From: an uncultured Candidatus Rokubacteria bacterium
Lineage (GTDB): Bacteria; Methylomirabilota; Methylomirabilia; Rokubacteriales; DASRDR01
DNA: 64,000 bases
NCBI GenBank assembly: GCA_963826115.1
Contig: CAWGVS010000005.1
Location: 1,024,001 to 1,088,000, forward strand
Direction: 5' to 3'
Shown here: positions 45,801-63,295 of the stretch, one piece after another
Layout of the letters: each line of letters starts with the position of its first letter
Numbering within the stretch: the first letter of the stretch is position 1
Notes under the pieces: generated by a model
The model's input: only the letters and a program-made list of their open reading frames with translations
Databases searched by the model: none
Told to the model about the DNA's origin: nothing
Position numbers and translations under genes: made by a program

Positions 45801-46206
45801 CGAAGTAGGCGAGCACTCCGTCTCCGAGATACTGCGCGACCATCCCGTCCAGACTCTTGATCTCATTGGCGCAGCAGGTCTGGAATGCACTCACGACATC
45901 GCGCTGCTCCTCGGGATCGAGTCGGGTCGAGAGAGCGCTCGACCCCACCATGTCGCAGAACATGATCGTGAGCTGGCGACGTTCAGCCGAGGAGGCCGGA
46001 GTGACCGGCGCGGTTGGACGCGGGCCTGTCGACGGTGCCATCGCTGGCTTGCTTGGAGCGAGACCAACCCCGCACTCGGAACAGAACCGAGCCTGAGCTG
46101 AATTGGCATGCCCACAGGCAGGGCAAACACGCGGGAGTGGCGAGCCGCAGTGCTCGCAAAACTTGCCGCCTTCTCTCAGGCGTGAGTTACAGGTTGGGCA
46201 CTGCAT
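42885..46206 (-). pseudogene. Zinc-ribbon/class III adenylate cyclase/AAA (STAND)/TPR protein, frameshifted at 44904
   Basis: FCDMVGS, YLGDG, TNLAARL, GEPGIGKS; GAG GAC T CTG CAC TGG, removing one T restores EDLHWIDPTSLELL and joins ORFs 44890-46218 and 42885-44870. Confidence 0.85.
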
Positions 46207-46371
46207 CGCCGTTCCCACAATTGCTCCGGGTCAGCCTAGCACCATGACGACATCGTCAGGGCAGCCTGGGCGACCGCGGGCCGGGCCACGGCCGGGAGAC
46301 TGCTCACCAGAATGATTGCCGCGAAGGTGCGGAGGTCAGCATGCAGGGGTCTTCGAGAACCGTCGTCGAGG

Positions 46372-48316: not shown

Positions 48317-49249
48317 CTACTTCAGCTTGGGGTCCAGGGCGTCCCGGACCCCGTCACCCAGAAACGTGAACGACAGCATCGTGACGCCAATGGCGATGGA
48401 CGGGAACACGCAGAGGTGCCAGTACGTCCGGAGGTACTGCTGTCCCTCCCCCACCATCTGACCCCAGGACGGCGTCGGGGGATTGATACCCACGCCGATG
48501 AACGAAAGCGCGGCCTCCGTGAAGATCGCCTGGGGGATCCCGAACGTGATGGCGACGATGATCGGGGTGAGCGCGCTCGGAAGGATGTGACGCAGCAGCA
48601 CGCGACGGAACCCCCCGCCGAGGGCGCGGGCGCCCTCGACGAACTCCTTCTCCTTGATGGCAAGCACCTGGGCGCGCGTCTGCCGGGCGATGCCGACCCA
48701 CCCGGTGAGGCCGATCGCGATGAAGATGTTGACGAGGCCCGCGCCCAGCATGGACATGACGAGGATCACGAACAGCAGATTGGGAAAAGCGTACATGACG
48801 TCCACGAAGCGCATCAGCACGAGGTCCACGCGGCCCCCCAGGTAGCCGGACAGGGAGCCGATCGGCACGCCGATCAGCACGACGATCAGCTGGGCGCCCA
48901 ACCCGACCAGCATCGACACGCGAGCCCCATAGATGATCCGGGAGAGGAGGTCGCGTCCGACGTGATCGGTGCCGAGCGGGTAGTCGCGCGAGGGCCCTTC
49001 GTTCAGACGGGCGAAGTTCGTCTTCGTGTAGGGCAACGGGGCGAGGACGTCCGCCAGCAGCGCGACGAGGCACAAGATGAGGACGACGATTCCGCCCGCC
49101 ACCGCCAGCCGGTTGCGCAGGAGACGCCGGAAGGCGTCCCGCCAGAGGCTCGACGACTCGGCTCGCGCGAGGCCCGCGGCCCGCGCGGCGTCGAGGACCG
49201 CCCCGGTCCGAAGGCTACTGGTACCGGATGCGGGGGTCGAGAGTGCCAT
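48317..49249 (-). CDS. oppC: Peptide ABC permease (OppC-like)
   Basis: PLGTDHVGRDLLSR, EFVEGARALG, EAALSFIG, PSWG. Confidence 0.9.
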   Translation of the reverse strand: MALSTPASGTSSLRTGAVLDAARAAGLARAESSSLWRDAFRRLLRNRLAVAGGIVVLILCLVALLADVLAPLPYTKTNFARLNEGPSRDYPLGTDHVGRDLLSRIIYGARVSMLVGLGAQLIVVLIGVPIGSLSGYLGGRVDLVLMRFVDVMYAFPNLLFVILVMSMLGAGLVNIFIAIGLTGWVGIARQTRAQVLAIKEKEFVEGARALGGGFRRVLLRHILPSALTPIIVAITFGIPQAIFTEAALSFIGVGINPPTPSWGQMVGEGQQYLRTYWHLCVFPSIAIGVTMLSFTFLGDGVRDALDPKLK

Positions 49250-50145
49250 AGACGAGGTCGACGACGAGGTTCATCGTCGCGAGGAACGCGCCGTACACGA
49301 GAACGACGGCCATGATCATGGGATAGTCGCGGCCGGTCATCGAGAGCACGAAGAACTGTCCCATGCCTGGCACCCGGAAGATGGCCTCCACGAAGAACGA
49401 GCCGGTGCCGACGGCGGCGAACAAGGGGCCCAGGAGCGTCACGATCGGGATCAGCGCGTTCTTCAGAGCGTGCTTGAAGATCACCGGCGGCTCAGCGAGC
49501 CCCTTCGCGCGCGCGGTGAGCGTGAAATCCGACCGGATGACCTCGAGCATGCTGGCGCGCGTGTACCGGGCGACCAGGCCCATGGGGGCCAGCGACAGAG
49601 TGAGTGGTCGGCAGGACCCAGTTGCGGGGTGAGTCCCACCCCCCGGTCGGGAAGAGCGGGATGACGAACGAGAACATCACGATGGCGAAGACGGCCAGGA
49701 CGAAGTTCGGCACGGCCACGCCGAACGTCGCGACGCAGACCGACACGTAGTCCCAGGCCCGGTTCTGGTGCATGGCGGCCAGGATGCCGAGCGCCAGTCC
49801 TCCGACGACAGCCAGGACGAAGGCCATCGTGCCCAGCCAGAGCGAAACGGGGAACGTCTGGGCGATGATCTCGCTGACCGTTCGGGTCTTGTAGACAAAC
49901 GACTGGCCGAAGTCCCCTCGGGCGGCCTTGCCGACGAAGATGAGGAACTGCTGGTAGAGCGGCCGGTCGAGGCCGTAGGCCTTGGCGAGGTTTTTCTGGG
50001 CCTCGGGAGGCAGAGGATTTGCGCCTTCTGCCACGGGATCGAGCGGACTTCCTGGCGTCGCATGCATCACCAGGAAGGTCACGAGCGCCATGGCCAGGAG
50101 CGTCGGGGCCAGCCACAGGACGCGAGACGCCGCGTATTGGAGCAC
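49215..50145 (-). pseudogene. oppB: Peptide ABC permease (OppB-like), frameshifted near 49605
   Basis: YGLDRPL, GDFGQS, then CCG ACC A CTC ACT CTG; removing one base gives VLPTLTLSLAPMGLVARYTRASMLEV...ARAKGL. Confidence 0.85.
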
Positions 50146-50303: not shown

Positions 50304-51125
50304 GTGAACGTCACGCTTCTCGGAACCGGATGCCCGCCGCCGAATCCGGCCCGTCGTGGCCCCGCGACCCTCGTTCGCGCCGGCGCGGAGACGCTCCTCG
50401 TGGATGCCGGATCCGGGGTGGCCGTGCAGCTGCTCCGCGCCGGGGTCCGGGCGAGCCAGCTCCAGCGTGTCCTGCTCACCCATTTGCACTCCGACCACGT
50501 CATCGACCTCGGCCATCTCGTGCTGACCCGCTGGATCGTCGGCGAGAACACGCCGCTCGAGGTGTTCGGCCCGGCCGGCACGGCCGCCCACGTGGAGCGG
50601 CTCCTCGCTCTCTGGGCCTGGGACGTCGAGGTCCGGCGCTCGCACATGCGCGAGCGCGAGCCGCCCCGCGTGCGCGTGACGGAGATCGAGGAGGGCCTGG
50701 TGTTCGAGCGGGACGGCGTGCGCGTCACCGCGTTCCTCGTGGAGCACGAGCCCGTGAAACCCGCGTTCGGGTTTCGCTTCGACGCGCCCGGCCGCCGCGT
50801 CGTGATCTCGGGGGACACGCGGCCCTCGGAGAACCTGATCCGGCACGCGCAGCAGGCGGACCTCCTGATCCACGAGTGCACCGACATGACCTTCGCGGCG
50901 TGGACGCCCGGGTGCGGCTGGCCGACGCGAGAGGCGAAGGTGCGCGACCTGCAGGCCTATCACACGGGACCGGACGAGGTCGGCGCGGTTGCAGCCGAGG
51001 CTCGCGCGCGCCATCTGGTGCTCACGCACCTGATGCCGGGCTCCGAGCCCGGTGACCTGATCGATCGAGCCCGCGCGCGCTTCGCCGGTCCGATCACGGT
51101 CGGCGAGGACCTCGCCGCGCTGTAG
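50304..51125 (+). CDS. MBL-fold hydrolase, RNase Z/AtsA-like
   Basis: LLGTGCP, LVDAG, THLHSDH, ISGDT, LIHE, LTHL. Confidence 0.88.
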   Translation: MNVTLLGTGCPPPNPARRGPATLVRAGAETLLVDAGSGVAVQLLRAGVRASQLQRVLLTHLHSDHVIDLGHLVLTRWIVGENTPLEVFGPAGTAAHVERLLALWAWDVEVRRSHMREREPPRVRVTEIEEGLVFERDGVRVTAFLVEHEPVKPAFGFRFDAPGRRVVISGDTRPSENLIRHAQQADLLIHECTDMTFAAWTPGCGWPTREAKVRDLQAYHTGPDEVGAVAAEARARHLVLTHLMPGSEPGDLIDRARARFAGPITVGEDLAAL

Positions 51126-51539
51126 GCGCGGAGGGCCTACGCCGAGCGCTCGCGGTTACGGCGCCTCCGGCCCCTCAGATGTCACGGCCAGCGCTTTGGG
51201 CCCCCCGCGCGCCCGGCCTCCGCCTCCTCGACAAAGACCCGCGCGTCCGCACGTAGGCCGTCCCAGCCACGTTTCTGTATCCCCTCCCCCGTCCCCCGCT
51301 CGCGGGCGCGCGGCATCGGCCGCGCACCCGAACAACAGCGCGGCGCAGCCGCGTCGGAGGGCGAGGGGGTCAGGACGTGAGGCCCGGAACCCGACCGACA
51401 GGTCCCGCGTGCAGAGTGCGTTCGATGAGCTAGGAGGCCGCCTAGCGTCCGACCCGTGCTTCCTGGTAGGGTCAGGCTGGCGTTCCCCTCGGAATGGCAG
51501 CCGCGTCCCACTGGCCTCAGTCGACGGAAGGATTCATCG

Positions 51540-52529
51540 ATGCTCGCCCGGCTCATGGCCGCGACCATCCTCGCCCTGGCCCTCCTCGCCGCGCCGCTCG
51601 CCGTTGCGGCACAGCCGGCGGGGAAAGGCCACCGGATCGGCTTTCTGGGCGTGGGCTCGCGCGAGGGCCGGGCGTTCTTGATTGACGGCTTTCTCCAGGG
51701 GCTGCGCGAGCACGGCTACGTCGAGGGCCGAAACATCTTCATCGAGTACCGCTTCTCCGAGGACCGCAACGATCGGCTGCCCGCGCTCGCGGCGGAACTG
51801 GTCGATCAGAAGGTGGAGCTCATCCTGGCGTCCGGTACCCCGGCGAGCTTTGCGGCCAGGCAGGCCACCCGTACGATTCCGATCGTCATGGGAAGCCTGG
51901 CCGCCAATCCGGTCGAGACCGGCCTCATCGTCAGCCTGGCGCGGCCCGGTGGCAACATCACCGGGATGACGCAGATGGCCGCGCAGCTCGGCGGGAAGCG
52001 GCTGGAGCTGCTCAAGGAGACCGTGCCGGGTCTGTCGCGCGTGGCTGTCTTCTGGAATCCCGACAACCCCGCCTACGGGCCCATCCTGAAAGAGCTCGAG
52101 GCGGCGGCCCCCGTGCTGGGGGTGGAGCTTCGCCGCGTGGAGGTGCGAGTTCCCGAGGATTTCGAGGCCGCCTTTCAGGGCGCGACCAGGCAGCGTGCCG
52201 GGGCGCTGATCGTCCCCAGCGACCCCCTGGTCACCAACCGGCCCCGCACGGTCGCGGACCTGGCGCTCAGATATCGACTGCCAACGATGTTCGAGAACAA
52301 GGAGTTCACGGAAGTCGGGGGCCTCCTGTCTCTCGGGGTTGACCTCGTCGACTCGTACCGGCGCGCCGCGAGCCATGTGGACAAGATCCTGAAGGGGGCC
52401 AAGCCCGGCGACCTGCCGATGGAGCAGCCCACGAAGTTCGACCTGTTCGTCAACCTGAAGACAGCCAAGGCCCTCGGCCTCACGATCCCGCCGTCGGTGC
52501 TCGCGCGGGCGGACGAGATACTTAAGTGA
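51540..52529 (+). CDS. Orphan ABC substrate-binding protein (ABC_sub_bind family), copy 1
   Basis: GLREHGYVEG, SLARPGGNITG, KRLELLKE, P.DLP.EQPTKF..VNLKTAKALGLTIP. Confidence 0.9.
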   Translation: MLARLMAATILALALLAAPLAVAAQPAGKGHRIGFLGVGSREGRAFLIDGFLQGLREHGYVEGRNIFIEYRFSEDRNDRLPALAAELVDQKVELILASGTPASFAARQATRTIPIVMGSLAANPVETGLIVSLARPGGNITGMTQMAAQLGGKRLELLKETVPGLSRVAVFWNPDNPAYGPILKELEAAAPVLGVELRRVEVRVPEDFEAAFQGATRQRAGALIVPSDPLVTNRPRTVADLALRYRLPTMFENKEFTEVGGLLSLGVDLVDSYRRAASHVDKILKGAKPGDLPMEQPTKFDLFVNLKTAKALGLTIPPSVLARADEILK

Positions 52530-53509
52530 TGGACCGGCGAGCCTTCGTTGCTGGCACCCTGACCCTCCTCGCCGCGCCGCTCGCCACGGAGGCGCAGCCG
52601 GCGGGTAAGGTCTTCCGGATCGGCGTGCTCAGCCCGGGCTTGGCCCAAGGCTCGTTGGTCGAGATGGCGGCCCTCCGGACCGGGCTCGGCGAGGTCGGGT
52701 ACGTCGAGGGCCAGAACATCCGCATCGACTGGCAATTTGCCGAGGGCAGCCCTCAGCGGCTGAACGAGCTCGCGGCCGAGCTCGTCCGTCTCAAGCCTGA
52801 CGTGATCTTCACGATCAACACCCCCGCCGCGGCGGCCGCCAAGAGCGCGACCAGCACGATGCCCATCGTCTTCGTGAGAGTCAGCGATCCCATCGGGGCG
52901 GGGCTGGTCCCGAGCCTGGCGCGGCCGGGAGGGAACGTGACGGGCCTGGCTTCGTTCGTGGCCGAGATGGGCCCGAAACGCCTGGAGCTTCTCAAGCAGG
53001 CCATTCCGCGCCTCTCCCGGGTCGCTGTGCTCTGGAATGCTCCGAGCAAGGGCGCGCAGCTGGTATTCACGGAGCTCAAGGCGGCGGGTCCCCGCCTCGG
53101 CGTGCAGATCCAAGACGCGGGCGTGCGAGACCCGAATGAGCTGGCGGGCGTCTTCGGCGCCGCGGCCGAGGCACGGGCCAGTGCCCTGGTCGTGATCGAT
53201 GACCTGGTGATCGATTCATACCGGACCGAGATCCTGGCCCTGGCCGCGAAGCACCGGCTCGGGGTGGCCTCCATATATCGGGAGTACACGAACGCGGGGG
53301 GTCTCATGGCCTACGGTCCCAGCCTGTCGGATACGTATCGGCGCGCCGCGACCTACGTCGACAGGATTCTCCGCGGCGCCAGGCCGGCCGATCTTCCAGT
53401 CCAGCAACCCGCAAAGTTTGACTTCGTGATCAACCTCAAGACCGCCAAGACCCTCGGCCTGACGATCCCGCCCTCACTGCTCGCGCGGGCGGATGAGGTC
53501 ATTCAGTGA
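52529..53509 (+). CDS. Orphan ABC substrate-binding protein, copy 2
   Basis: TGATG overlap; MDRRAF Tat-like start; same family motifs; ends IPPSLLARADEVIQ. Confidence 0.9.
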   Translation: MDRRAFVAGTLTLLAAPLATEAQPAGKVFRIGVLSPGLAQGSLVEMAALRTGLGEVGYVEGQNIRIDWQFAEGSPQRLNELAAELVRLKPDVIFTINTPAAAAAKSATSTMPIVFVRVSDPIGAGLVPSLARPGGNVTGLASFVAEMGPKRLELLKQAIPRLSRVAVLWNAPSKGAQLVFTELKAAGPRLGVQIQDAGVRDPNELAGVFGAAAEARASALVVIDDLVIDSYRTEILALAAKHRLGVASIYREYTNAGGLMAYGPSLSDTYRRAATYVDRILRGARPADLPVQQPAKFDFVINLKTAKTLGLTIPPSLLARADEVIQ

Positions 53510-53578
53510 CCAGCAGGGCGCGCTTCTTGCTGGGGCGATCCCATCGCAGCCAGTCTCGCCTGAGTAAGGCATTGTCTC

Positions 53579-54481
53579 GTGGAGCCTGATCGGGCGAGCT
53601 GGACCGCGAGATTGGCCGCCTACGCGCGCGCATATCACTACGCCCACGACTCACGCCGGGTATTCGAGGACTTCCTGGCGGGCGCGCTCATCACGCGAGA
53701 AGACCGGGAGACCATGGACACACAGTGGGCACCCGCGGCGGCCGACTCTCAGCCGAGACGGCCGGGCGGCGCCCACATGCTCGGCAGAGCGCGCTACAAC
53801 GAGGACAAACTCTTCGGCGCGATCGACAAAGGCATCTCACAGTACGTCATCGTCGGCGCTGGCATGGACACCTTCGCGCTACGGCGGCCCGACCTCCAGG
53901 AGCGTCTCCGGATCTTCGAGCTCGATCACCCCGCGACGCAGGCGTTGAAGCGGGACCGGCTGTCTCAGGCCGCCCTGGCTCTACCACCCCACCTCCACTT
54001 CTGCCCGACTGATTTCGAGCGCGAGAGCGTCGGATCCTCACTGTCCCGATCGCCATTCGACCCCGGGGTTCCGACGTTCTTCTCATGGCTGGGCGTCACG
54101 TACTACCTGACGCGCGAGGCGATTCGCAACACGCTCACGTCGATCTCGACCGTGGCAGCGCCGAACAGTGAACTCGTCATGGACTACGCGGATGCGGCCG
54201 CGCTTCTTCCAGACAATCAGTCTCCCCAGATCCGGGACCTCTTCTTGCGACTCCAGAGCGTGGGCGAGCCCCTGATATCCGGTTTCCACCCGTGCACACT
54301 GACTGAAGAGCTCGCAGCGCTCGGGTTCGACCTCTTGGAGGATTTGGACGCCAAGGTGCAAGAAGCACGCTACTTTGCGGGTCGAGTCGATGGGTTCCGT
54401 CCGGTTGAGTTCGCTCACTTGGCGCATGCACGTCGGATCCCGCCTCCGATGCTGGCGCGGGCGGATGAGGTGATCCAGTAG
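53579..54481 (+). CDS. SAM-dependent methyltransferase (LCM/TIGR00027-like) with SBP-derived C-terminal tail
   Basis: QYVIVGAGMDT, FELDHPATQ, WLGVTYYL; ends IPPPMLARADEVIQ. Confidence 0.85.
   Translation: MEPDRASWTARLAAYARAYHYAHDSRRVFEDFLAGALITREDRETMDTQWAPAAADSQPRRPGGAHMLGRARYNEDKLFGAIDKGISQYVIVGAGMDTFALRRPDLQERLRIFELDHPATQALKRDRLSQAALALPPHLHFCPTDFERESVGSSLSRSPFDPGVPTFFSWLGVTYYLTREAIRNTLTSISTVAAPNSELVMDYADAAALLPDNQSPQIRDLFLRLQSVGEPLISGFHPCTLTEELAALGFDLLEDLDAKVQEARYFAGRVDGFRPVEFAHLAHARRIPPPMLARADEVIQ
54436..54481 (+). repeat. Copy of the SBP 3'-terminal sequence at the end of the methyltransferase
   Basis: GATCCCGCCTCCGATGCTGGCGCGGGCGGATGAGGTGATCCAGTAG versus GATCCCGCCCTCACTGCTCGCGCGGGCGGATGAGGTCATTCAGTGA (53464-53509); related copies end SBP1 and SBP3. 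Confidence 0.85.
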
Positions 54482-55474
54482 GTGGACCGGCGCGCCTTCC
54501 TCGCCGGCTCCCTGGGCGCCCTCGCCGCGCCGGTCGCCGCGGGGGCGCAGCAGGCAGACCGCATTTGGCGGGTCGGCCTCCTCATTCCGTTCGCCGAGAG
54601 CGACGCGGAAGCGCAGACCCAGGTTGCAGCGTTCCTGGGGGCCCTGCGGACACTTGGTTGGGACGAAGGTCGAAATGTGCGCATCGATTATCGTTGGGCT
54701 GCGCGGGATACCACTCGTATTCGGGCATCTGCGAAGGAGCTGGTGGAGCTTCGGCCCGACGTGATTCTCGCCCGCACCACCCCAGTGACCGCCGCACTCC
54801 AAAGAGAGACCAGCACCATCCCGATAGTCTTCGTTGTCGTCTCTGATCCCGTTGGCGACGGCCTCGTCGCGACTGTCGCGCGTCCTGGTGGCAACATCAC
54901 GGGATTCACCAATGTGGATGCTTCGCTAGGCGGCAAATGGCTGCAGTTGCTCAAGGAGATCGCACCTCGCATCAAGAAGATCGCGTTCCTTTTCGATCCC
55001 AGGATGGCCCCCGGTGGGGGAGTGTATTACCGTCGTCTGATCGAGGACGCTGCTCCATCCATCGGGGTACAGGCGATCGAGACCGCGGTGCATGACGCCG
55101 CGGATATCAAGCGCGCCATCGAGGGGTTCGTGCGGGAACCGAACGGTGGTCTTGTTGTGCTACCCGATGTGACGACCATTAATCACCGCAGGACGACGAT
55201 TTCGCTGGCGGCCAACCATCGCCTGCCGGCCATCTATCCGACCGACTACTTCACGAAGGATGGCGGTCTAATATCCTACGGAGCCGACTATCTGGACTTG
55301 TATAGAAAGTCAGCGTCATATGTGGATCGCATCCTTCGCGGTGCGAAGCCGATTGACCTTCCAGTGCAGGGACCGATCAAGTTCCAGTTAACCGTCAACC
55401 TGAAGACCGCCAAAGCGCTCGGCCTCACGATCCCGCCCGCGGTGCTCGCACGGGCAGATGAAGTGATTCAGTGA
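54482..55474 (+). CDS. Orphan ABC substrate-binding protein, copy 3
   Basis: MDRRAFL start directly after TAG; ARPGGNITG; ends IPPAVLARADEVIQ; interior visibly more AT-rich. Confidence 0.9.
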   Translation: MDRRAFLAGSLGALAAPVAAGAQQADRIWRVGLLIPFAESDAEAQTQVAAFLGALRTLGWDEGRNVRIDYRWAARDTTRIRASAKELVELRPDVILARTTPVTAALQRETSTIPIVFVVVSDPVGDGLVATVARPGGNITGFTNVDASLGGKWLQLLKEIAPRIKKIAFLFDPRMAPGGGVYYRRLIEDAAPSIGVQAIETAVHDAADIKRAIEGFVREPNGGLVVLPDVTTINHRRTTISLAANHRLPAIYPTDYFTKDGGLISYGADYLDLYRKSASYVDRILRGAKPIDLPVQGPIKFQLTVNLKTAKALGLTIPPAVLARADEVIQ

Positions 55475-55561
55475 CGCGCCCACGCACGCGACCGGAAAGG
55501 GCCGGCAGCGCCCCTTGACGCCCCCGCCCCGACCCCAAGGGGGGGGCGGCCTCTCCTGGGT

Positions 55562-55798
55562 GTCCTGACTGCAGCCGGCGTCCGCTACCGGGAGCCCGAG
55601 CGACTCCGGCACACGTTCGCCAGCACGATGCTGTCGCGTAATGCCCCGCTGCTCTACGTGCAGAAGCAGGGTGGCTGGCGAAGCGCGGCCGTGCTCCTGC
55701 GCGTCTACAGCCGCTGGCTCCCCCCGGATATCGACGGGGGGTCGATGCAACCGTCCGCAACCCCCGCGCAACCGGCCGTGGTCGCGCCGCGGAAGTAG
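55562..55798 (+). pseudogene. C-terminal remnant of a tyrosine recombinase/integrase
   Basis: VLTAAGVRYREPERLRHTFASTMLSRNAPLLYVQKQGGWRSAAVLLRVYSRWLP (box II with catalytic Tyr); no N-terminal domain; not in ORF track. Confidence 0.82.
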
Positions 55799-55810
55799 CG
55801 GGAATCTATG

Positions 55811-55842
55811 ACCCGCCGAGCAGCGGGCGAAACTTCCAGAAG
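55811..55842. repeat. Left attachment-site repeat (duplicate of the 3' end of gene 61877-63295)
   Basis: ACCCGCCGAGCAGCGGGCGAAACTTCCAGAAG, 28/32 identical to 61879-61910; minus strand reads FWKFRPLLGGS*. Confidence 0.85.
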
Positions 55843-56059
55843 CACTTGGCCCCCACGCGCGTGCTCGAAAATCCGGCACGTTACAAGACAGCGGCCCGAA
55901 ATCTATCCCCTGGCAACATAACCACACGCGGCCTCGACCTGCGTACGTCACGACTTGCGCGACACCACCGTGAGCTCCCATTAACGCCGGGTCAGCTGGA
56001 CGCATTCCAGCGGCCCGGCGACAGGTCTCCCAGTACCACCGTGCTATCCTAGCGACACA

Positions 56060-56293
56060 ATGACCTCATCAGCTGAACACACCAATCTGCCTGAAGTGAT
56101 CTTCCTCGTCGAGGAAGCCCCCGAGGGCGGTTTCACCGCACGGGCCCTGGGAGAATCAATCTTCACCGAGGCCAACGACATGGAAGACCTCCATGCGAAG
56201 GTCCGAGACGCGGTTCACTGTCACTTCGACGAGGGCAAGACTCCGAAGGTCATCCGGCTCCATTTCGTCCGTGAGGAAGTCATCAAGGCTTGA
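56060..56293 (+). CDS. HicB-like antitoxin (short form)
   Basis: EVIFLVEEAPEGGFTARALGESIFTEA...VRDAVHCHF; TGCTATCCT extended -10 just upstream; coupled to hicA. Confidence 0.75.
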   Translation: MTSSAEHTNLPEVIFLVEEAPEGGFTARALGESIFTEANDMEDLHAKVRDAVHCHFDEGKTPKVIRLHFVREEVIKA

Positions 56294-56535
56294 GGCTGCC
56301 GCGGGACGTCTCTGGGGAGGATCTCGCGAAGGCACTCGGTGATCTCGGCTACCGGATCACTCGCCAATCCGGTAGCCATCTCAGACTGACCACGCTCGAA
56401 CGCGGCGAGCACCACGTCACCATCCCTCGCCACGCTGCGCTCCGGGTTGGGACACTGTCCGGTCTCCTCGGCGACGTGGCCCAGCATTTCGCCCTGAGCC
56501 GAGAGGAGCTGATCGAGCGGTTGTTTGGGCGATAG
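56290..56535 (+). CDS. hicA: HicA family toxin (mRNA interferase)
   Basis: LPRDVSG, LGYRITRQSGSHLRL, VTIPRH, LRVGTL; TTGA overlap. Confidence 0.88.
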   Translation: MRLPRDVSGEDLAKALGDLGYRITRQSGSHLRLTTLERGEHHVTIPRHAALRVGTLSGLLGDVAQHFALSREELIERLFGR

Positions 56536-56580
56536 ACGACCAGGAGCGAGGTCGGCTGAAGTCCCGACACTGCGCATTCG

Positions 56581-59500
56581 TCAGCCACGCTCCGTCAGCG
56601 CCGCCTCCGCCTGCGCCAGCCAGAAGCCCATCTCCATCTCTCGATACATATTCGTGGCCGCGGTCAGGTGCTCGTGGGCCTTCGGACGATCACCGGTGCG
56701 GCGATAGAGTTTGCCGAGGCCGAGGTGGCAGTGGGCGACGAGGGGGCGCATGCCGCGCGGCTCGGCGAGCTCCAGCGCCCGGCGGTAGTGGGCCTCGCCG
56801 CTGTCGGCGTCCAACCGGTCGGGATGGGTCGCGATGTCGCCGAGCAGGTGCCGCGCGTCAGCCGCGAACCCGTGCTGCCCCGGAGAGGATTCGACCGCGC
56901 GGTCGGCCAGGCGCTGCGCTTCGTCGAGCCGGCCGAGCAGCAGACCGGCGCGACCCAGCGAGTGGTAGTCCCAACTGCGATAGGCGATGAACCCCCTTGC
57001 CGCCTGACGTTCGAGAAGCCGCTCGCCCTCCCGGAGCCGGTCCAGCGCCTCACTCGCTTCGCCAAGCTGCGCCAATGCCCAGGCGGAGGAGGCGACCGCG
57101 GTGGGAAGCTGAAAGACGACGTTTCGCGGCCGCACCACCGCAATCCACTGCTCGATCAGTGTCCGCGCGTTCGGCCAGTCGCCCTTGAGGAGGCGAAGCG
57201 TGCCCGCGGCGAGGTGGGCCCAGCCGACGGTGTGCGCGTGCTGTGTCGGCTCGGCAAGCCGGATCGCGTCGGCTTCATACGTGGCCGCCTCGATGAACCG
57301 GCCAAGTTGGGCGAGGCTCATGGCCAGGTAGGAGCGGTCGAGGACCGATGGCGGGACGGCCAGGCCGAAATACTCGGAGGCCAAGTCGGCCGGCAGCGCC
57401 GCGAGGTTGCCCGTCGCCAGCTCGACCACTCGCTCGTACTCGCCCCGGTAGTAATGCCCTTCAACGAGACAGCTCGTGGCGAGAATTCGGAGCCTCACAT
57501 CCCCGAGACGCCCGGCGATCGCCAGCGCGCGAGTGCCGGTCACGAGCGCGTCGTCCAATTCGCCGAGATCGTTCAGGGCCATCGTCACGAACGCGCCGGC
57601 GCGGCCTCGCCGGCGGTCATCGTTCAACCGTTCGGCGAGGGCCTCGGCTTCGCGCAAGCGGTCCCGCACTCGCTGGACTTCACCGAGTTGGTTCAGCACT
57701 GGCCGCAGTTCGAGGCGGATCTCGAAGCTCTGCTCCAGCATGGACGGGCTCTCCGGCAGCGCCTCGAGGACCCCCAGCGCCTGCTCGAACCAGACCCGAG
57801 CATCCGAGAGCGCCGATCGCGCGGCCGCCTTGAGCCCGGCCTGCCGGGTATAGTCCACCGCCTTCTCCCGCAACTCACCCCGGACCGCGTGATGAGCGAG
57901 CCGCTCGATCTCTGCGCCAAGGCGGTCTTGGTGGAGCGTCTCGATTGCTTCGACGATCCGCGCGTGCAGCTCGCGGCGCCGCTCCTGCAGCAAGCCGCCG
58001 TACGCGACCTCGTGCGTGAGCGCGTGCCGGAACGTGTACTCGAGATCCGGGAACAGCCGCGTCTCGTAGAGGAATTCGGTCGCCTGAAGCTGGGCGAGCC
58101 CCTGGCGGAGACGGTCCTCGGGCTCGTCGGCCACAGCCTGGAGCAGCGAGAAGGGAACGTCGGTGCCGATCACCGCGGCCGCCTGCAGCAGTCGTTTGTC
58201 CTCCGGGTCCAGTCGGTCGATCCGGGCCGCCAGCATCGCCTGGGCCGTGGCCGGGACCCGGAGGCCTTGGACGATCCGGGTCACGCGATATGCTCCACGC
58301 TCCCCCGCCAGGACTCCCGTCTCGACCAGCGATCGAACGCTCTCCTCCACGAAGAACGGGTTGCCCTCGGTCCGCTCGATCACGAGCCGCTTGAGCGGGG
58401 CGAGCGCGGTGTCGTTCCCGAGCAGGGCGTCGAGCAAGGCCTCGGCGCTCTCGGGCGCCAGGGGATTGATCTGGAGCTGCCGGTAGTAGGTCTTGCTCCC
58501 CCAGCCGTGGCGGTACTCCGGGCGGTAGTTTACGAGGAGGAGCAGCCTGGCCGTGGGCAGGCTCTCCACCAGGCTGTCCAAGAAGGCCTGAGTCTCGGCG
58601 TCGATCCAGTGCAAGTCCTCGAACAGGACCACGAGCGGCTGCACCTGGCTCTCGCGCAGGAGCAGACGCTTGACGCCGTCAAGGATACGCTGGCGGCGCT
58701 GGGGCGGATCGAGGCGTGCCCAGTGCTCGTCCTCGATCGGGACGTCAAGCAGCCACAGAATCGGGAAGACGCAGGGCTCAAGCTGCCGGTCGAGAGAGAG
58801 GAGCCTGCCCGTCACCTTCTCGCCGATCTTGCGGGCATCGTCGGTGCTCTCGATCTGGAAGTACGCTCGGAGCAGCTCGATGAGGGGCAGGTAGTTCGTC
58901 GCCTTGCCGTAGGAGACGGAGCCGGACTCGAGGATCAGCCAGCCCTCGGCGCGATCGGAGTGACTGAACTCCCAAAAGAGCCGGGACTTCCCGACACCGG
59001 GCTCCCCCACGAGGGCCACCACCTGTCCGTGACCGGCTCGCGCGCGCTCGAGCGCCTGGCGGAGCTGATCCAGCTCGCTCTCTCGGCCCACGAATTGGGC
59101 CAGGCCGCGGACGGCCGCGGCCTGGAAGCGCGAGCGGACCGTGGCGGCCCGGGTCAGTTCGTAGACCTCGAGCAACATCTCCAGCCCCTTGACCCGCACC
59201 GGGCCGAGCGATTTGACCTCGACGTAGCCTTCGGCCAGCGCCAGCGTCTCGGGCGTGATCACGATCGCGCCGGGGTCGGCGAGCTGCTCCATCCGCGCGG
59301 CCAGGTGCGTCGTCTGGCCGACGGCGGTGTAGTCCATACGGAGATCGCTGCCTATGGCGCGGACGACGACCTCGCCTGAGTTCAGCCCGACGCGGATCTT
59401 GACGACGGCCGCATGAGAGCGCCGCACCTCGTCCGCGTACGTCTTCACGCGCTCCTGCATCCTGAGTGCCGCGTAGCATGCCCGCACCGCATGGTCCTCG

Positions 59501-59949
59501 TGGGCCAGCGGCGCACCGAACAGCGCCATGATCCCGTCGCCCATCACCTGGTTGACGGTGCCCTCGTAGCGGTGGACGGCCTCCATCATCCGCTCGAGCA
59601 CGGGATCCAGGAGCTTCCGTGCCTCCTCGGGGTCGCGGTCGGCGAGCAATTCCATCGAGCCCTTTAGATCGCCGAAGAGCACCGTCACCTGCTTCCGCTC
59701 GCCTTCGAGGGCACTCTTCGAGGTGAGGATCTTCTCGGCGAGGTGCTTCGGGGTGTAGGCCCCTGGTGAGCTGAAACGTGGCTGCGTCGAGGCCAGCTCG
59801 GCCAGCGGATGGGCGCACTCGGAGCAGAACTTCGCGGTCGGGGACGCCTGGGCGCCGCAATTCGCGCAGGTTCGGGCGAGAGGAGCGGCACATTCCTCGC
59901 AGAACTTCGCCTGCGGGCGATTCTCATGCTGGCACCGGGAGCATTTCAT
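56581..59949 (-). CDS. Double zinc ribbon/class III adenylate-guanylate cyclase/AAA (STAND)/TPR protein
   Basis: CxxC repeats, FGDLKGS, MGDG, HLAARME, GEPGVGKS, FEDLHWID, GNPFF, helical repeat C-terminus. Confidence 0.92.
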   Translation of the reverse strand: MKCSRCQHENRPQAKFCEECAAPLARTCANCGAQASPTAKFCSECAHPLAELASTQPRFSSPGAYTPKHLAEKILTSKSALEGERKQVTVLFGDLKGSMELLADRDPEEARKLLDPVLERMMEAVHRYEGTVNQVMGDGIMALFGAPLAHEDHAVRACYAALRMQERVKTYADEVRRSHAAVVKIRVGLNSGEVVVRAIGSDLRMDYTAVGQTTHLAARMEQLADPGAIVITPETLALAEGYVEVKSLGPVRVKGLEMLLEVYELTRAATVRSRFQAAAVRGLAQFVGRESELDQLRQALERARAGHGQVVALVGEPGVGKSRLFWEFSHSDRAEGWLILESGSVSYGKATNYLPLIELLRAYFQIESTDDARKIGEKVTGRLLSLDRQLEPCVFPILWLLDVPIEDEHWARLDPPQRRQRILDGVKRLLLRESQVQPLVVLFEDLHWIDAETQAFLDSLVESLPTARLLLLVNYRPEYRHGWGSKTYYRQLQINPLAPESAEALLDALLGNDTALAPLKRLVIERTEGNPFFVEESVRSLVETGVLAGERGAYRVTRIVQGLRVPATAQAMLAARIDRLDPEDKRLLQAAAVIGTDVPFSLLQAVADEPEDRLRQGLAQLQATEFLYETRLFPDLEYTFRHALTHEVAYGGLLQERRRELHARIVEAIETLHQDRLGAEIERLAHHAVRGELREKAVDYTRQAGLKAAARSALSDARVWFEQALGVLEALPESPSMLEQSFEIRLELRPVLNQLGEVQRVRDRLREAEALAERLNDDRRRGRAGAFVTMALNDLGELDDALVTGTRALAIAGRLGDVRLRILATSCLVEGHYYRGEYERVVELATGNLAALPADLASEYFGLAVPPSVLDRSYLAMSLAQLGRFIEAATYEADAIRLAEPTQHAHTVGWAHLAAGTLRLLKGDWPNARTLIEQWIAVVRPRNVVFQLPTAVASSAWALAQLGEASEALDRLREGERLLERQAARGFIAYRSWDYHSLGRAGLLLGRLDEAQRLADRAVESSPGQHGFAADARHLLGDIATHPDRLDADSGEAHYRRALELAEPRGMRPLVAHCHLGLGKLYRRTGDRPKAHEHLTAATNMYREMEMGFWLAQAEAALTERG

Positions 59950-60930
59950 GGGCCGGAGCTCCTCGACCGGGCAGCACTGCAAGCAGCAGAAGGCGGGGCT
60001 CCCGCTCCTTGCGGCAGGAGCTGATGACTGGAGCCAGAGAAGAACGCGGGAAGTCTGCAGCGCAAGATTAAGGAAGAGGGCCGTGTGCGAGCTAAGTCCC
60101 CGAATCCAGAAACGACCGAACGGCCCTCGCATGCATTCGTTGCCCAGTGCCTATCCAAGCCTGAGGGCCGTCGGAGGGCTGTAGTCGAAGAAGACGCCCC
60201 CGCACATCTCCTATGGCCAGGCGCCCAAACCTGTTGGCGGTCTCGACGGGCCAGGGGCAGTATCCGCGCGCATCGGATTCGACCAGGGTCTGCAGTGGCT
60301 ACGATGTTTCGGCGGGCCGACGGCAGAAGTATGGCCAGTCCGGAAGGTGGAACCTCGGCGAAAGAGACTTGATGCGACGCACGGCAAGATAAAGGCCGGG
60401 GCCTGATCCGCCTCAAGTCCGCGAATCTATGCACCATCGGAAGGCCCCGAAGCCGTTCGAGGGCGCGCCCTGTTTCGAGTGTCGGGGCCGCTCGGGGGCC
60501 GCGCTCACGGCCTAGAATCGCGTGGCGCCGAATGGCTCCATCGGCCTCGCTCGTGTGCTGCGACCTCCGCACTGCCCACACCATCGAGCCATAGCCGACC
60601 CTGTCGGCACAGGCTCTTGGCCGATGTCGCGAGAGGGTCTCGCCGAACCGCTTCACTTTGCGTCGCACCGCTGCACCTTGCCGCAGTCCGGCACCCCACC
60701 GAGGATCGTATCGACGGCGCGCTCCCCTCGCCAATCGCCGACTTGGCGCGAGGTTCGGGCACTCGCGACCGCCAAACCCACAACCTAGCATGCCTATTGG
60801 TAGCACGACCCGTACCGATATGAGTTCCGACCTGATCGCGTCCCCGGTGCCCCAGATCTCCCTTGCCTCGCGGCGGCGGCTTCGCTACCGTGCGAGGCAG
60901 CGTGGGGCTGGGCCGCGTCGGGGACATCCC

Positions 60931-61848
60931 ATGACGCTTGGACTCCCGGTCCTGTGGAGGAGGTACCTGTCCGAGTTGCGAATCGACCGAGCCGTGGCGG
61001 ACAGGACGCGCCGTGCCTACGAGACGGGCTGGAACTCCTTCGTGGCCACCTCGCGGTCGATGGGCTGGCGTCTCCGGGACGCCGGCGACATCAGCTACGA
61101 GCGGCTCCTGGAGTGGCAGCTCACCCTGAAGGAGGTGGGGAAGCAGGACTGGACCTGCCGGACGTACCTCATGGCCCTCAAGGGCTTCACCCGGTGGCTC
61201 AATACCAACGGGCACCTCGTCACCGACCCGGGCGCCCGGTTCCGCACCCCTCGGCTCAAGCGCACGATTCCGATCCTCCCTGCGTTCCACGACCTCGCCA
61301 CCCAGCTCGCCAGCGAACCGAGCCTCCGGAACCGCGCCATCCTCGCGATCGCGCTTTACGGGGGCCTTCGTGCCGCCGAGATCGCGGGGCTCCGTCGCGC
61401 CCACTTCGTGCCGGACCAGGGGCTCATCGGGTTCGTGGGCAAAGGCCAACGTCAGCGCTCGGTGGCACTTCCGCCCCAGGCGCTCGAGATCATCCAGATG
61501 TACCTGGCCACCAGCACAACGATCCATAACGGCGCCAATCGGAACGGCCACACCGTCCCTGCCGACTCGCCGCTCCTCCGCAAGGAGGACGGGAGCGGCG
61601 CCGGGCTCAGCTACCTCGTCATCAACCGCGTCATGACCCGCTGGACGCGGCGGCATCTCGGCGTCCGCCTCACCCCGCACAAGCTCCGCCACGCCTACGG
61701 CAAGCACTGCGTCGACCGCGGCGTCGACATCCGGATCATCGCCGAGGCGCTCGGTCACGAGTCGCTCGAATCGACCAAGATCTACACCCAGGTGTCCTTC
61801 GAGCGCACCCGCCGCATCGCCGAGTTATTTGCCCTCCCGGGGAGCTAA
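60931..61848 (+). CDS. Tyrosine recombinase/integrase (XerC/D-like), catalytically intact
   Basis: GGLRAAE (R), GKG (K), HKLRH, LGHES, TKIYT; start may be upstream (60820). Confidence 0.92.
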   Translation: MTLGLPVLWRRYLSELRIDRAVADRTRRAYETGWNSFVATSRSMGWRLRDAGDISYERLLEWQLTLKEVGKQDWTCRTYLMALKGFTRWLNTNGHLVTDPGARFRTPRLKRTIPILPAFHDLATQLASEPSLRNRAILAIALYGGLRAAEIAGLRRAHFVPDQGLIGFVGKGQRQRSVALPPQALEIIQMYLATSTTIHNGANRNGHTVPADSPLLRKEDGSGAGLSYLVINRVMTRWTRRHLGVRLTPHKLRHAYGKHCVDRGVDIRIIAEALGHESLESTKIYTQVSFERTRRIAELFALPGS

Positions 61849-61876
61849 ATAACCCGGTGCGAAATCGTCAACGAAA

Positions 61877-63295
61877 TCACCCGCCTAGCAAAGGGCGGAA
61901 CTTCCAGAAGTAGTTCGCGAGGCCGCCGCCCTCGTGGAAGCGGCGGAACGTGAGCTCGACCGGGACGTCGAACGTCACCGAGTCGGGGTCGGCGTCCGTC
62001 AGCTGGGTGTAGAAGCGGCCCCCGCCCTCGAGGTCCGCGGCCACCATGACCGTCGGCGGATCGGGCGACGGCACCAGGTGATCCTTGGTGAACGTGAAGA
62101 CGCGGCCGCGCCGGGAGAGCCGGTGCTCCACGAGCTCCTTGCCGGAGCAGCGCCAGCACACGCGCCGGCGGGGATACTGGATGGCCCCGCACGCCACGCA
62201 GCGCTGGCCGTAGAGGCGGAGGTCCTGGCGCTCCTCGCGCTCCATCACCGGGAGGCTCGTGAACGCCCGGATGGGATCGGTCTCGACCAACCGGCGGAAC
62301 TGGAGATACTTCCCGTAGTGCCGGAGCGGCCGCCCGGCGGCCACCTGGGCGGCGACGCCGCGGCTCCGGTCGAGGCGACGAACGGCGTCCGTCGCCTCGA
62401 AGAGGAGCGCGTCGGCGCCGGCGCCGTAGCCCACCACGAGGATCCGGTCGCCCGGCTCCGCCTCCTCGAGACACGCGGCGAGCGCCAGGATCGCCGCCGC
62501 CACGCCGGTGTTCCCGACGCGCGAGAGGAGCGAAACCCTCGGGAGCGCATCCTCGCCCAGGCCGATGCTGCGCAGGATCGGTCCGGCCAGGCGCGGGTCC
62601 GGCGCGTACACGGCCGCGCGGCGGATCTCGCGCGCCCCCACCCCGGTGTCGGCGAACAGGCGCCGCGCCGCCTCCGCCATCTGCCGCTCGTAGCCGTAGG
62701 CACGGACGAACGTGGGATCGCCCTGCTCGGGGAAGCGCGCGCCGGCAAGCCGCCAGACGTCGGAAAACTCGTGAGTGTGGGCGGCCGCGCCAACGAACCG
62801 CGCGAGTACGCCCGGCCCGGTCCCGAGCCGCACCGCAGCGGCCGCATCCCCCCAGACCGTCTCGAGCTCGCTGCCGGGGGGCGCCAGACGCATGTCGGCC
62901 GCGGCAACCATTGCCTCGCGCGCCGAGCCCGCGCGGACCGCGTCGAGGCCCAGCCGGAGTCCGGTCGTGCCGGCGCGGAGACTGCCCCCCAGGTCGGCGA
63001 CGGCGACGGAGGGCCCGCAGTCGAGCACGCTGGCGAGCACGGCGGCCGCCGATTTCTCCGCGTAGGGCGACGTCGTGCTGGCGAGCGCGACGAAGTCGAG
63101 GTGAGCGGCGCCCGCGGGCCCGAGCGCGGCGAGGCCCGCTTCCACGGCCATCGTGAGGCTGTCCTCGTCGTGGTTCGCGACCGCCCGCTCGCCCTGGCCC
63201 GGCCCGCCCCAGGCGCCGCCGAGGGTCTCGCCCGACAGCCGGTACCGCGGAACGTGCACCCCGATCCCGGTGATGCCGATCGGCGGGGCGCTCAC
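61877..63295 (-). CDS. HMG-CoA synthase/KAS III-like domain fused to DUF35 zinc-ribbon/OB-fold domain
   Basis: GVHVPRYRL, ERAVANHDEDSLTMAVEA, GDAAAA, VGNTG, GYGAGAD; CVAC...CWRC, VELTFRR...NYFWK. Confidence 0.88.
   Translation of the reverse strand: MSAPPIGITGIGVHVPRYRLSGETLGGAWGGPGQGERAVANHDEDSLTMAVEAGLAALGPAGAAHLDFVALASTTSPYAEKSAAAVLASVLDCGPSVAVADLGGSLRAGTTGLRLGLDAVRAGSAREAMVAAADMRLAPPGSELETVWGDAAAAVRLGTGPGVLARFVGAAAHTHEFSDVWRLAGARFPEQGDPTFVRAYGYERQMAEAARRLFADTGVGAREIRRAAVYAPDPRLAGPILRSIGLGEDALPRVSLLSRVGNTGVAAAILALAACLEEAEPGDRILVVGYGAGADALLFEATDAVRRLDRSRGVAAQVAAGRPLRHYGKYLQFRRLVETDPIRAFTSLPVMEREERQDLRLYGQRCVACGAIQYPRRRVCWRCSGKELVEHRLSRRGRVFTFTKDHLVPSPDPPTVMVAADLEGGGRFYTQLTDADPDSVTFDVPVELTFRRFHEGGGLANYFWKFRPLLGG
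61879..61910. repeat. Right attachment-site repeat forming the present 3' end of gene 61877-63295
   Basis: ACCCGCCTAGCAAAGGGCGGAACTTCCAGAAG; minus strand FWKFRPLLGG* with host-atypical codons CCT TTG CTA. Confidence 0.85.

Follow-up and report, generated by a model that had tools for sequence, protein, structure and literature searches.

Host-type gene ends and foreign interiors in PF04392 substrate-binding protein arrays of Rokubacteria and Proteobacteria

We analyzed a 64,000-nucleotide (nt) stretch of DNA, hereafter the window, from an uncultured Candidatus Rokubacteria bacterium (GenBank assembly GCA_963826115.1, contig CAWGVS010000005.1, positions 1,024,001 to 1,088,000 of the forward strand). 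It carries a co-oriented array of four genes, three of which encode substrate-binding proteins (SBPs) and one, located between the second and the third, an unrelated methyltransferase (MTase; Table 1). SBP1, SBP2 and SBP3 were assigned to the ABC_sub_bind family (PF04392) with 170, 180 and 160 bits against a gathering cutoff of 25.9, and the MTase to the LCM family. The first-pass annotation, made from the letters of the window, had proposed that the MTase ends in the terminal sequence of the flanking SBPs and that this shared end is a recombination site of an integron-like array of captured genes.

All four genes close with a 44-nt direct repeat that begins at the first nucleotide of each tail in Table 1 and is 82-84% identical to the reference copy; no inverted copy was found on the minus strand of the window. 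Over the last 46 nt of the MTase gene, 34, 37 and 36 positions agree with the respective SBP tails; in the 30 nt preceding this stretch, the agreement drops to 9, 7 and 9 positions. Thus, the MTase does end in SBP terminal sequence, and the homology does set in abruptly at 54436, as first described; the chimeric-tail pattern, which occurs once in the window, was absent from 100 shuffles. The idea that the four genes share one discrete 46-bp unit had to be amended. The SBPs resemble each other at high identity over ~80 nt and at 68-76% over 176 nt, therefore the 46 nt mark just the point where the MTase homology stops, i.e. the MTase joint. Likewise, the MTase tail runs to the stop codon, but its junction with SBP3 is abutting (TAG followed directly by GTG) and not, as had been stated, the same as the overlapping junction of SBP1 and SBP2 (GTGATG). 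The C-terminal motif encoded by the tail is a native feature of PF04392 proteins, being present in the solved relatives 3LKV and 3LFT. We further scanned species-representative genomes for sites at which non-SBP codons are followed by the terminal 24 nt of the tail, which yielded at least 118 loci (L-numbers below); long flanks were used for 80 of the 118 loci listed.

The tail appears to serve the translation of the gene that follows it. Close to the end of the MTase tail, GAGGTGATC can form a 9-bp pairing with the 3' end of 16S rRNA (-15.5 kcal/mol, anti-Shine-Dalgarno sequence) a few bases before the SBP3 start, and this complementarity suggests that it is the ribosome-binding site (RBS) of SBP3. 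The valine codon within the Shine-Dalgarno (SD) sequence is GTG in 34 of 48 tails, compared with 78 of 213 conserved body positions (p=2e-5). A tail remnant precedes 9 of 37 unselected SBPs that are first in their run, whereas among control gene starts the count is 2 of 355. Most of the first-in-run SBPs lacking a remnant have a purine-rich leader of their own, and three follow the 3' end of an intron. The remnants can be as short as 13-16 nt (14-16 nt in arrays L032 and L047), which corresponds to the SD core plus the start. Stop/start overlaps (TGATG/ATGA) combined with an SD in the upstream coding end give these junctions the sequence features of predicted translational coupling.

The ends of the SBP genes sort by host and their bodies do not; foreign bodies lie between host-type ends. 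At fourfold-degenerate sites, paralogues of one locus show an identity of 0.72 for tails and 0.44 for bodies, and genes of different taxonomic groups 0.43 and 0.35, respectively; the heads of the window SBPs reach 0.88 (n=25). Paralogues that are otherwise ~50% identical resemble each other most at the junction, which consists of the last ~30-80 nt of one gene and the first ~75 nt of its successor. The mosaic structure is evident in SBP3. Its G+C content at third codon positions (GC3) is 0.93 in the first 30 codons and then 0.5-0.77, and its last 30 codons match SBP1 and SBP2 at 0.76-0.89 versus 0.56-0.64 for the best body match, a Pseudolabrys SBP. In a quick tree of bodies (24 rows), SBP3 nests among alphaproteobacterial SBPs (96 and 99 in the Shimodaira-Hasegawa-like approximate likelihood ratio test, SH-aLRT), and a clade of the window SBP bodies is rejected (approximately unbiased test, p=9e-5). 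In an equally quick tree of 84-nt tails, the window tails group with a Rokubacteria tail (SH-aLRT 89), and their clade is not rejected (p=0.50); judged by these tail sequences, the host would be a Rokubacterium. The same discordance of end and body was found in a betaproteobacterial gene of L032. The units of L047 are 71-94% identical to each other, with nearest neighbours that shift from one part of the gene to another, a pattern that local duplication and exchange would produce.

The comparison set for the MTase comprised its 120 best homologues, 35 of them close (including that of the window) and 85 more distant. A tail-like motif at the C-terminus is absent from all 85 distant homologues; a native MTase ending was thereby ruled out as the source of the tail. 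Tail remnants were identified in 7 of the 35 close relatives, the window MTase being counted. Their endings vary between HAR-RADE, HAR-RADVIIE, HAR-RADGIIE and the 14 residues seen in the window, and in relative P0035 a 20-residue tail is reached by frameshifted reading directly behind the gene. On a 38-row MTase tree the remnants occupy three places, namely the window clade (support 100/99), P0021, which lies near P0013, and P0035, which is sister to P0007; both P0013 and P0007 end in HARL, and the inner supports are too low to polarize the long tail as ancestral or derived. Remnants of different length at three places suggest that this MTase lineage recurs beside SBP tails with joints that differ. 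The one-off deletion that had been named as the simpler alternative is thus too narrow an explanation. The GC3 of the MTase body is 0.67-0.87 versus 0.86-0.98 in most well-scored genes of the window.

The genome scan returned the tail on non-SBP DNA across phyla. Including the window, 119 matches are listed; 12 that end in TGG, mostly unrelated genes of Actinomycetota and Acidobacteriota, were dropped, as were 23 whose SBP homology exceeds 80 nt, leaving 84 orphan tails, which probably still include some chance matches (e.g. L041). Among these listed matches, 69 of the 84 orphan tails belong to Alphaproteobacteria. Their 5' breakpoints span 24-71 nt from the stop, with 39, 18, 12, 8 and 3 cases in successive 6-nt bins from 24 nt and 4 more at 60-71 nt; since the scan required the last 24 nt to be intact, breakpoints closer than 24 nt are invisible to it and those beyond ~51 nt are under-sampled, and in simulation the estimator overshoots by ~2 nt at 24. 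The shape of the distribution does not change when shared events are merged (79 left). A fixed crossover at GATCCCG, as initially envisaged, is at odds with these data: only 8 of 84 breakpoints fall at 44-48 nt compared with 39 at 24-29 nt, and ATCCC occurs at the MTase register in two orphan tails.

Short tails are also common outside this selection. Of 24 truncated tails in unselected flanks, 14 do not exceed 100 nt, versus none in a codon-shuffled control, and the terminal 27-nt window yields 13 isolated short fragments versus 0-4 for each of 13 internal windows of equal information. Upstream of the orphan tail, at a distance of up to 100 nt, a gene ends on the same strand in 24 cases and on the opposite strand in 4. 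An SBP head follows 13 of the 84 tails. Pfam-supported in-frame fusions are limited to two orphans, the window MTase and L024; capture within coding sequence is thus not the rule. Of the proposed array of captured genes, the foreign cargo was borne out, notably in the form of toxin-antitoxin modules (see below). An unrelated methyltransferase (Methyltransf_11) at L011:2753-3834 has an open reading frame (ORF) that crosses an orphan SBP tail out of frame.

These data could alternatively be accounted for by passive decay, in which an insertion and a deletion fused the MTase to the last 46 nt of an SBP gene, the RBS was kept while the family decayed, and the ends played no active part in recombination. 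PF04392 is indeed vast, being among the most diverse families (14,241 clusters at 50% identity, E<=1e-30, concentrated in soil Alphaproteobacteria and Rokubacteria). Seven of the 84 orphans retain an upstream SBP remnant, i.e. they are plain internal deletions, and the genes upstream of orphan tails are mostly ordinary chromosomal genes or fragments of insertion sequences (IS); the native C-terminal motif also agrees with decay. We nevertheless hold such a passive origin to be rather unlikely, as it leaves unexplained the host-type ends on foreign bodies, the synonymous homogenization of tails and the three places of tail remnants on the MTase tree.

Several other features of the scanned loci were recorded. 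Short head-only SBP fragments are about as common as tail-only ones. In several loci these fragments, which fall within positions 1-82 of the SBP profile, are mostly 70-82 nt long, as is the twin-arginine-like signal peptide, and they may be signal peptides handed to other genes. A dispersed palindromic repeat (TTTGCTGCGGTGCATGAGTCCGC... and ATGTCCGC...GCGGACAT) lies downstream of alphaproteobacterial tails, e.g. at L064:8066-8115 and in L065, L061 and L075; it was detected after 22 of 75 headless orphan tails and 10 of 41 intact SBPs versus 2.4% of random windows. What we take to be IS ends are often inserted in it. The repeat is not present in the window and has no Rfam match in the loci scanned; the Rfam search of nine loci returned only a cobalamin riboswitch, tRNA and an intron domain, with nothing on the tail or the downstream repeat. 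In L018 (11986-14865), L048 (3002-3511 and neighbours), L093 and L110, SBP tails run directly into sensor-kinase-like genes (start ...RLFxKY...), hinting that orphan SBPs feed signalling more than transport, with gene labels that are in part putative.

Two long arrays, L032 and L047, each contain ~13-15 SBP units in 16 kb, and neither includes a permease or ATPase gene. All five gene-bearing interruptions of these arrays are toxin-antitoxin (TA) loci: PIN, DUF433, PIN, ParE with HTH, and HigB with HTH. Each of the five ends in a tail remnant (degenerate in one case) before the next SBP, and several interruptions retain 5-10 nt of an SBP head at the left. The gene-bearing interruptions of L033 and L042 are non-TA and end without a tail. 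Among small genes, those of TA type number 12 of 81 at distances of up to 1 kb from SBP sequence versus 3 of 108 beyond 2.5 kb (p=0.005; 5 versus 2 loci), with 8 of the 12 coming from two loci; 53 of 161 small genes, those 1-2.5 kb from an SBP segment, lay outside the scan, and two hand-added short ORFs were excluded from the count of 12 in 81.

In the window, the SBP array is followed by mobile DNA of a different kind (Table 1). Copies of an att-like repeat, which duplicates the 3' end of a HMG-CoA-synthase/ChsH2-type gene (61877-63295), flank a region of ~6 kb (55850-61877) that encodes HicA, a small partner ORF with no Pfam match, an adenylate-cyclase/AAA/TPR gene and the XerC/D-like integrase, and thus reads as an ordinary island separate from the array. 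The recombinase fragment at its left edge is probably the remnant of an older island at the same target; the intact integrase and this fragment could not be aligned to each other beyond chance. No tRNA gene was found in the 64 kb. A second adenylate-cyclase/AAA/TPR gene at 42885-46218 is split into two ORFs and has a G+C content of 60-65% and a GC3 of 0.69-0.76, closer to a foreign origin; genes of this family also adjoin SBPs on Rhizobium plasmids. A search of plasmids returned 140 records with distant SBPs, all below 60%. Elsewhere in the window, tandem paralogous genes at 233-532 and 1698-1997 lie 1465 nt apart and are 82% identical over 300 nt.

Table 1. Features of the SBP array and of the adjoining island in the window
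Feature	Coordinates	Strand	Remarks
SBP1	51540..52529	+	ABC_sub_bind (PF04392), first gene of the array
SBP1 tail	52484..52529	+	repeat family
SBP2	52529..53509	+	PF04392; start overlaps SBP1 stop (GTGATG)
SBP2 tail	53464..53509	+	repeat family
69-nt spacer	53510..53578	+	between SBP2 and MTase
MTase body, LCM / TIGR00027 SAM-dependent methyltransferase	53579..54435 (whole gene 53579-54481)	+	
Orphan SBP tail	54436..54481	+	in-frame on MTase (IPPPMLARADEVIQ, then stop); source of the MTase stop codon
GAGGTGATC	54467..54475	+	inside MTase tail; predicted RBS of SBP3 (anti-SD pairing)
SBP3, mosaic	54482..55474	+	first ~75 nt and last ~80 nt host-type, body alphaproteobacterial-like
SBP3 tail	55429..55474	+	repeat family
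Tyrosine recombinase, C-terminal fragment	55566..55798	+	PF00589, 25.5 bits, below cutoff; ends just before att-like repeat
att-like repeat	55811..55850	-	degenerate copy of 3' end of gene 61877-63295; left island boundary
Intact XerC/D-like tyrosine recombinase	60931..61848	+	beside second att copy (about 61879-61918)

The TA-rich arrays bear on the possibility that the units are site-specific cassettes. The site would then be the junction core (~CGCG[CG]GACGAGGTGATC.A.TGA plus a few head bases), head-body-tail units would be moved by a recombinase encoded elsewhere, and the variable remnant lengths would reflect the creation of cassettes, not their movement. The five TA interruptions that end in tail remnants, several with head bases at the left, speak for such a site, as do the enrichment of TA genes near SBPs, the synonymous fixation upstream of the SD (see below) and the parallel of host-specific ends and foreign bodies with sedentary integrons (PMC8618304); variable 5' joints are still compatible with a crossover at the stop/start core. 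Other observations do not fit. Attempts to find an attC-like hairpin on both strands of the four window junctions gave z-scores from -1.47 to +1.38 over the eight strands, and the pairing of tail and head at 66 junctions had mean z-scores of -0.9 in Alphaproteobacteria, -0.6 in Betaproteobacteria and -0.3 in Rokubacteria, with no lineage-matched covariation. The TA signal comes from 5 loci, with two contributing most of it, and the likeness of the window spacer to an SBP head is faint and not significant (p ~0.36 compared with random positions; the head profile was mostly alphaproteobacterial).

Nor was a recombinase found at a constant position: a profile built from relatives of the window integrase detects a tyrosine recombinase within 8 kb in just 6 of 66 long loci. 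The intact recombinase of the window scores 54.7 bits on the integron integrase model TIGR02249 (cutoff 265) and best matches XerC/XerD models, all below cutoff. At a distance of 5.4 kb and next to an att repeat of its own, it was ruled out as the acting enzyme. The suspected link of the array to the neighbouring tyrosine recombinases is accordingly dropped, and site-specific movement appears improbable to us. The integron-like comparison survives in the co-oriented array, the host-conserved repeats and the TA modules, and fails in the missing hairpin and integron integrase: the architecture is integron-like, and the system is not an integron. A more far-reaching version would make the SBP stop/start junction the recombination site of an in-trans recombinase in a cross-phylum cassette platform, where foreign SBP bodies and unrelated genes become cassettes by gaining a host-specific head and tail, are auto-expressed via the RBS, stabilized by TA modules and parasitized by the junction-homing group II intron, as an integron analogue for nutrient or signal sensing among abundant bacteria of soil; we regard this version as quite unlikely.

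Group II introns mark the same junction. In L010, L036 and L058 (twice in the latter), the first intron nucleotide lies exactly behind the SBP stop, and degenerate intron starts lie behind orphan tails in L014 and L112. Covariation links the putative exon-binding site 1 (EBS1) to the exon end (TCATTCG/CGAATGA in L058, TCACTCG/CGAGTGA in L036). Homing of the intron to the SBP junction implies that the junction is a real, exploited target. On the minus strand of L058, five intron starts spaced 675 nt apart represent tandem ORF-less intron copies, which could be an assembly artefact. It is conceivable that the intron, or its reverse transcriptase acting in trans, copies junction RNA and so generates 5'-truncated tails and chimeras, a scenario with which the exact insertion points, the EBS1 covariation and the SBP starts behind intron 3' ends would agree. 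We consider it very improbable: introns occur at a handful of the 118 loci listed and behind none of the four window tails, head-only fragments are as frequent as tail-only ones, and homing uses a repeated target and need not create it.

The scheme that we favour, with a probability of roughly 0.58, is one of birth-and-death SBP arrays whose conserved ends serve as homology handles, in which erosion is stopped by the RBS and neither a dedicated recombinase nor a fixed crossover is involved. PF04392 genes of soil Rokubacteria, Alphaproteobacteria and Betaproteobacteria form co-oriented arrays, in which units would be gained and lost rapidly by birth and death. The junction ends, which carry the SD and the overlapping stop/start of the next gene, would act as the handles. 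Homologous or homology-anchored illegitimate recombination with tracts of variable length would duplicate units and homogenize ends within a host, and the same process may bring SBP bodies of foreign origin, or cargo unrelated to SBPs, in between the native ends. Deletions would then erode leftover SBP sequence until something needed is reached, which before an SBP would be the RBS core, and TA modules may stabilize the arrays. The MTase would represent cargo in place of an SBP body, with the 46-nt tail kept because it gives the MTase its stop codon and SBP3 its RBS. Considering the shared ends, the SD-like core, the variable joints and the incongruence of ends and bodies, the array system is most likely run by general recombination.

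Several points weigh against this scheme. Codons -10 to -7, which lie upstream of the SD, are nearly fixed within loci (0.72-0.94 versus 0.33-0.62), and such synonymous fixation is also explicable by a protein-binding site. The pairwise statistics are non-independent, with L032 and L047 dominating them, and the tail tree of 84 columns has no starred branch. The tail of SBP1 itself pairs weakly with the anti-SD sequence (-5.8 kcal/mol). In 71 of the 84 orphans no SBP head was detected behind the tail by hidden Markov model search, and selection for an RBS cannot explain those 71; these headless tails may instead be anchored by downstream repeats or regulatory DNA. Finally, the homogenization of ends could come after whole-gene transfer and not with capture.

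Among known systems, sedentary chromosomal integrons and clusters of attC sites lacking integron integrases (CALINs) combine conserved attC sites with TA cassettes, and the SBP arrays share with them (PMC8618304) the tandem co-oriented units, host-conserved ends, foreign interiors and interspersed TA modules. The SBP arrays differ in having no attC-like hairpin or IntI, and no attI or Pc was found, with an insensitive promoter scan detecting no sigma-70-like site in 51100-56100; moreover, their repeat is protein-coding and RBS-bearing, the breakpoints vary, and nearly all units belong to one paralogue family. In homology-facilitated illegitimate recombination, a short homologous anchor admits non-homologous DNA with an imprecise joint at the other end (PMC4437187), which fits the variable breakpoints of the SBP tails. 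Conserved ends with incongruent foreign interiors and variable, imprecise joints, as homology handles should have, were both found here. The events described for it are single and occur in transformation, whereas the SBP anchors would form part of the ends of many paralogous genes.

Polymorphic toxin orphan-cassette arrays (Rhs, CdiA, MafB) also use short conserved coding repeats and exchange modules by homologous recombination; in those, the single expressed gene receives a different C-terminal domain, whereas in the SBP arrays whole bodies lie between ends in complete-gene units. The shufflon and the Mycoplasma vsa and vpma systems recombine at sites that lie within coding sequence or at its edge, and have a linked tyrosine recombinase, fixed crossover cores and inverted orientation. 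The SBP array resembles them in its ends at the edge of coding sequence and in the nearby tyrosine recombinase, and differs in that no fixed core, inverted repeats or linked recombinase were seen. Introns of the groEL clade target start and stop codons and occur in tandem copies (PMC12584367), and the SBP-junction intron is similar in both respects, with tandem copies in L058. Unlike these IIB1 introns, which insert between positions 2 and 3, it leaves the TGA complete upstream of its insertion point and has a multicopy target.

The SBPs themselves belong by sequence, C-terminal motif included, to the family of ABC_sub_bind/TrpX-like proteins (PF04392; 3LKV, 3LFT, 6HNI). They differ from TrpX-like SBPs in scoring 135 bits on the TrpX equivalog model (cutoff 390) and in their arrangement, as the units of the window and of the mapped arrays have no permease or ATPase gene among them or immediately next to them. 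An ABC permease gene elsewhere in the window seems frameshifted into two ORFs (49492-50145 and 49215-49583), possibly through a sequencing error. The best single-domain relative of SBP2 is ~55% identical.

No earlier description of SBP arrays, orphan tails or the junction-homing intron was found in the literature searched, which takes in few subscription papers, and an array system with host-specific RBS-bearing ends and exchangeable interiors has apparently not been described before. For annotation, orphan tails yield false SBP fragments and odd C-termini. As recombination handles, the SBP ends would offer a tractable model, usable in cultured Bradyrhizobium, for the way in which a foreign gene gains host-specific flanking repeats, a question that also arises for the cassettes of integrons. 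If the ends are recombination handles with a built-in RBS, unrelated genes would be captured ready for expression, and the handles would account for the generation of the SBP repertoire and its exchange between phyla.

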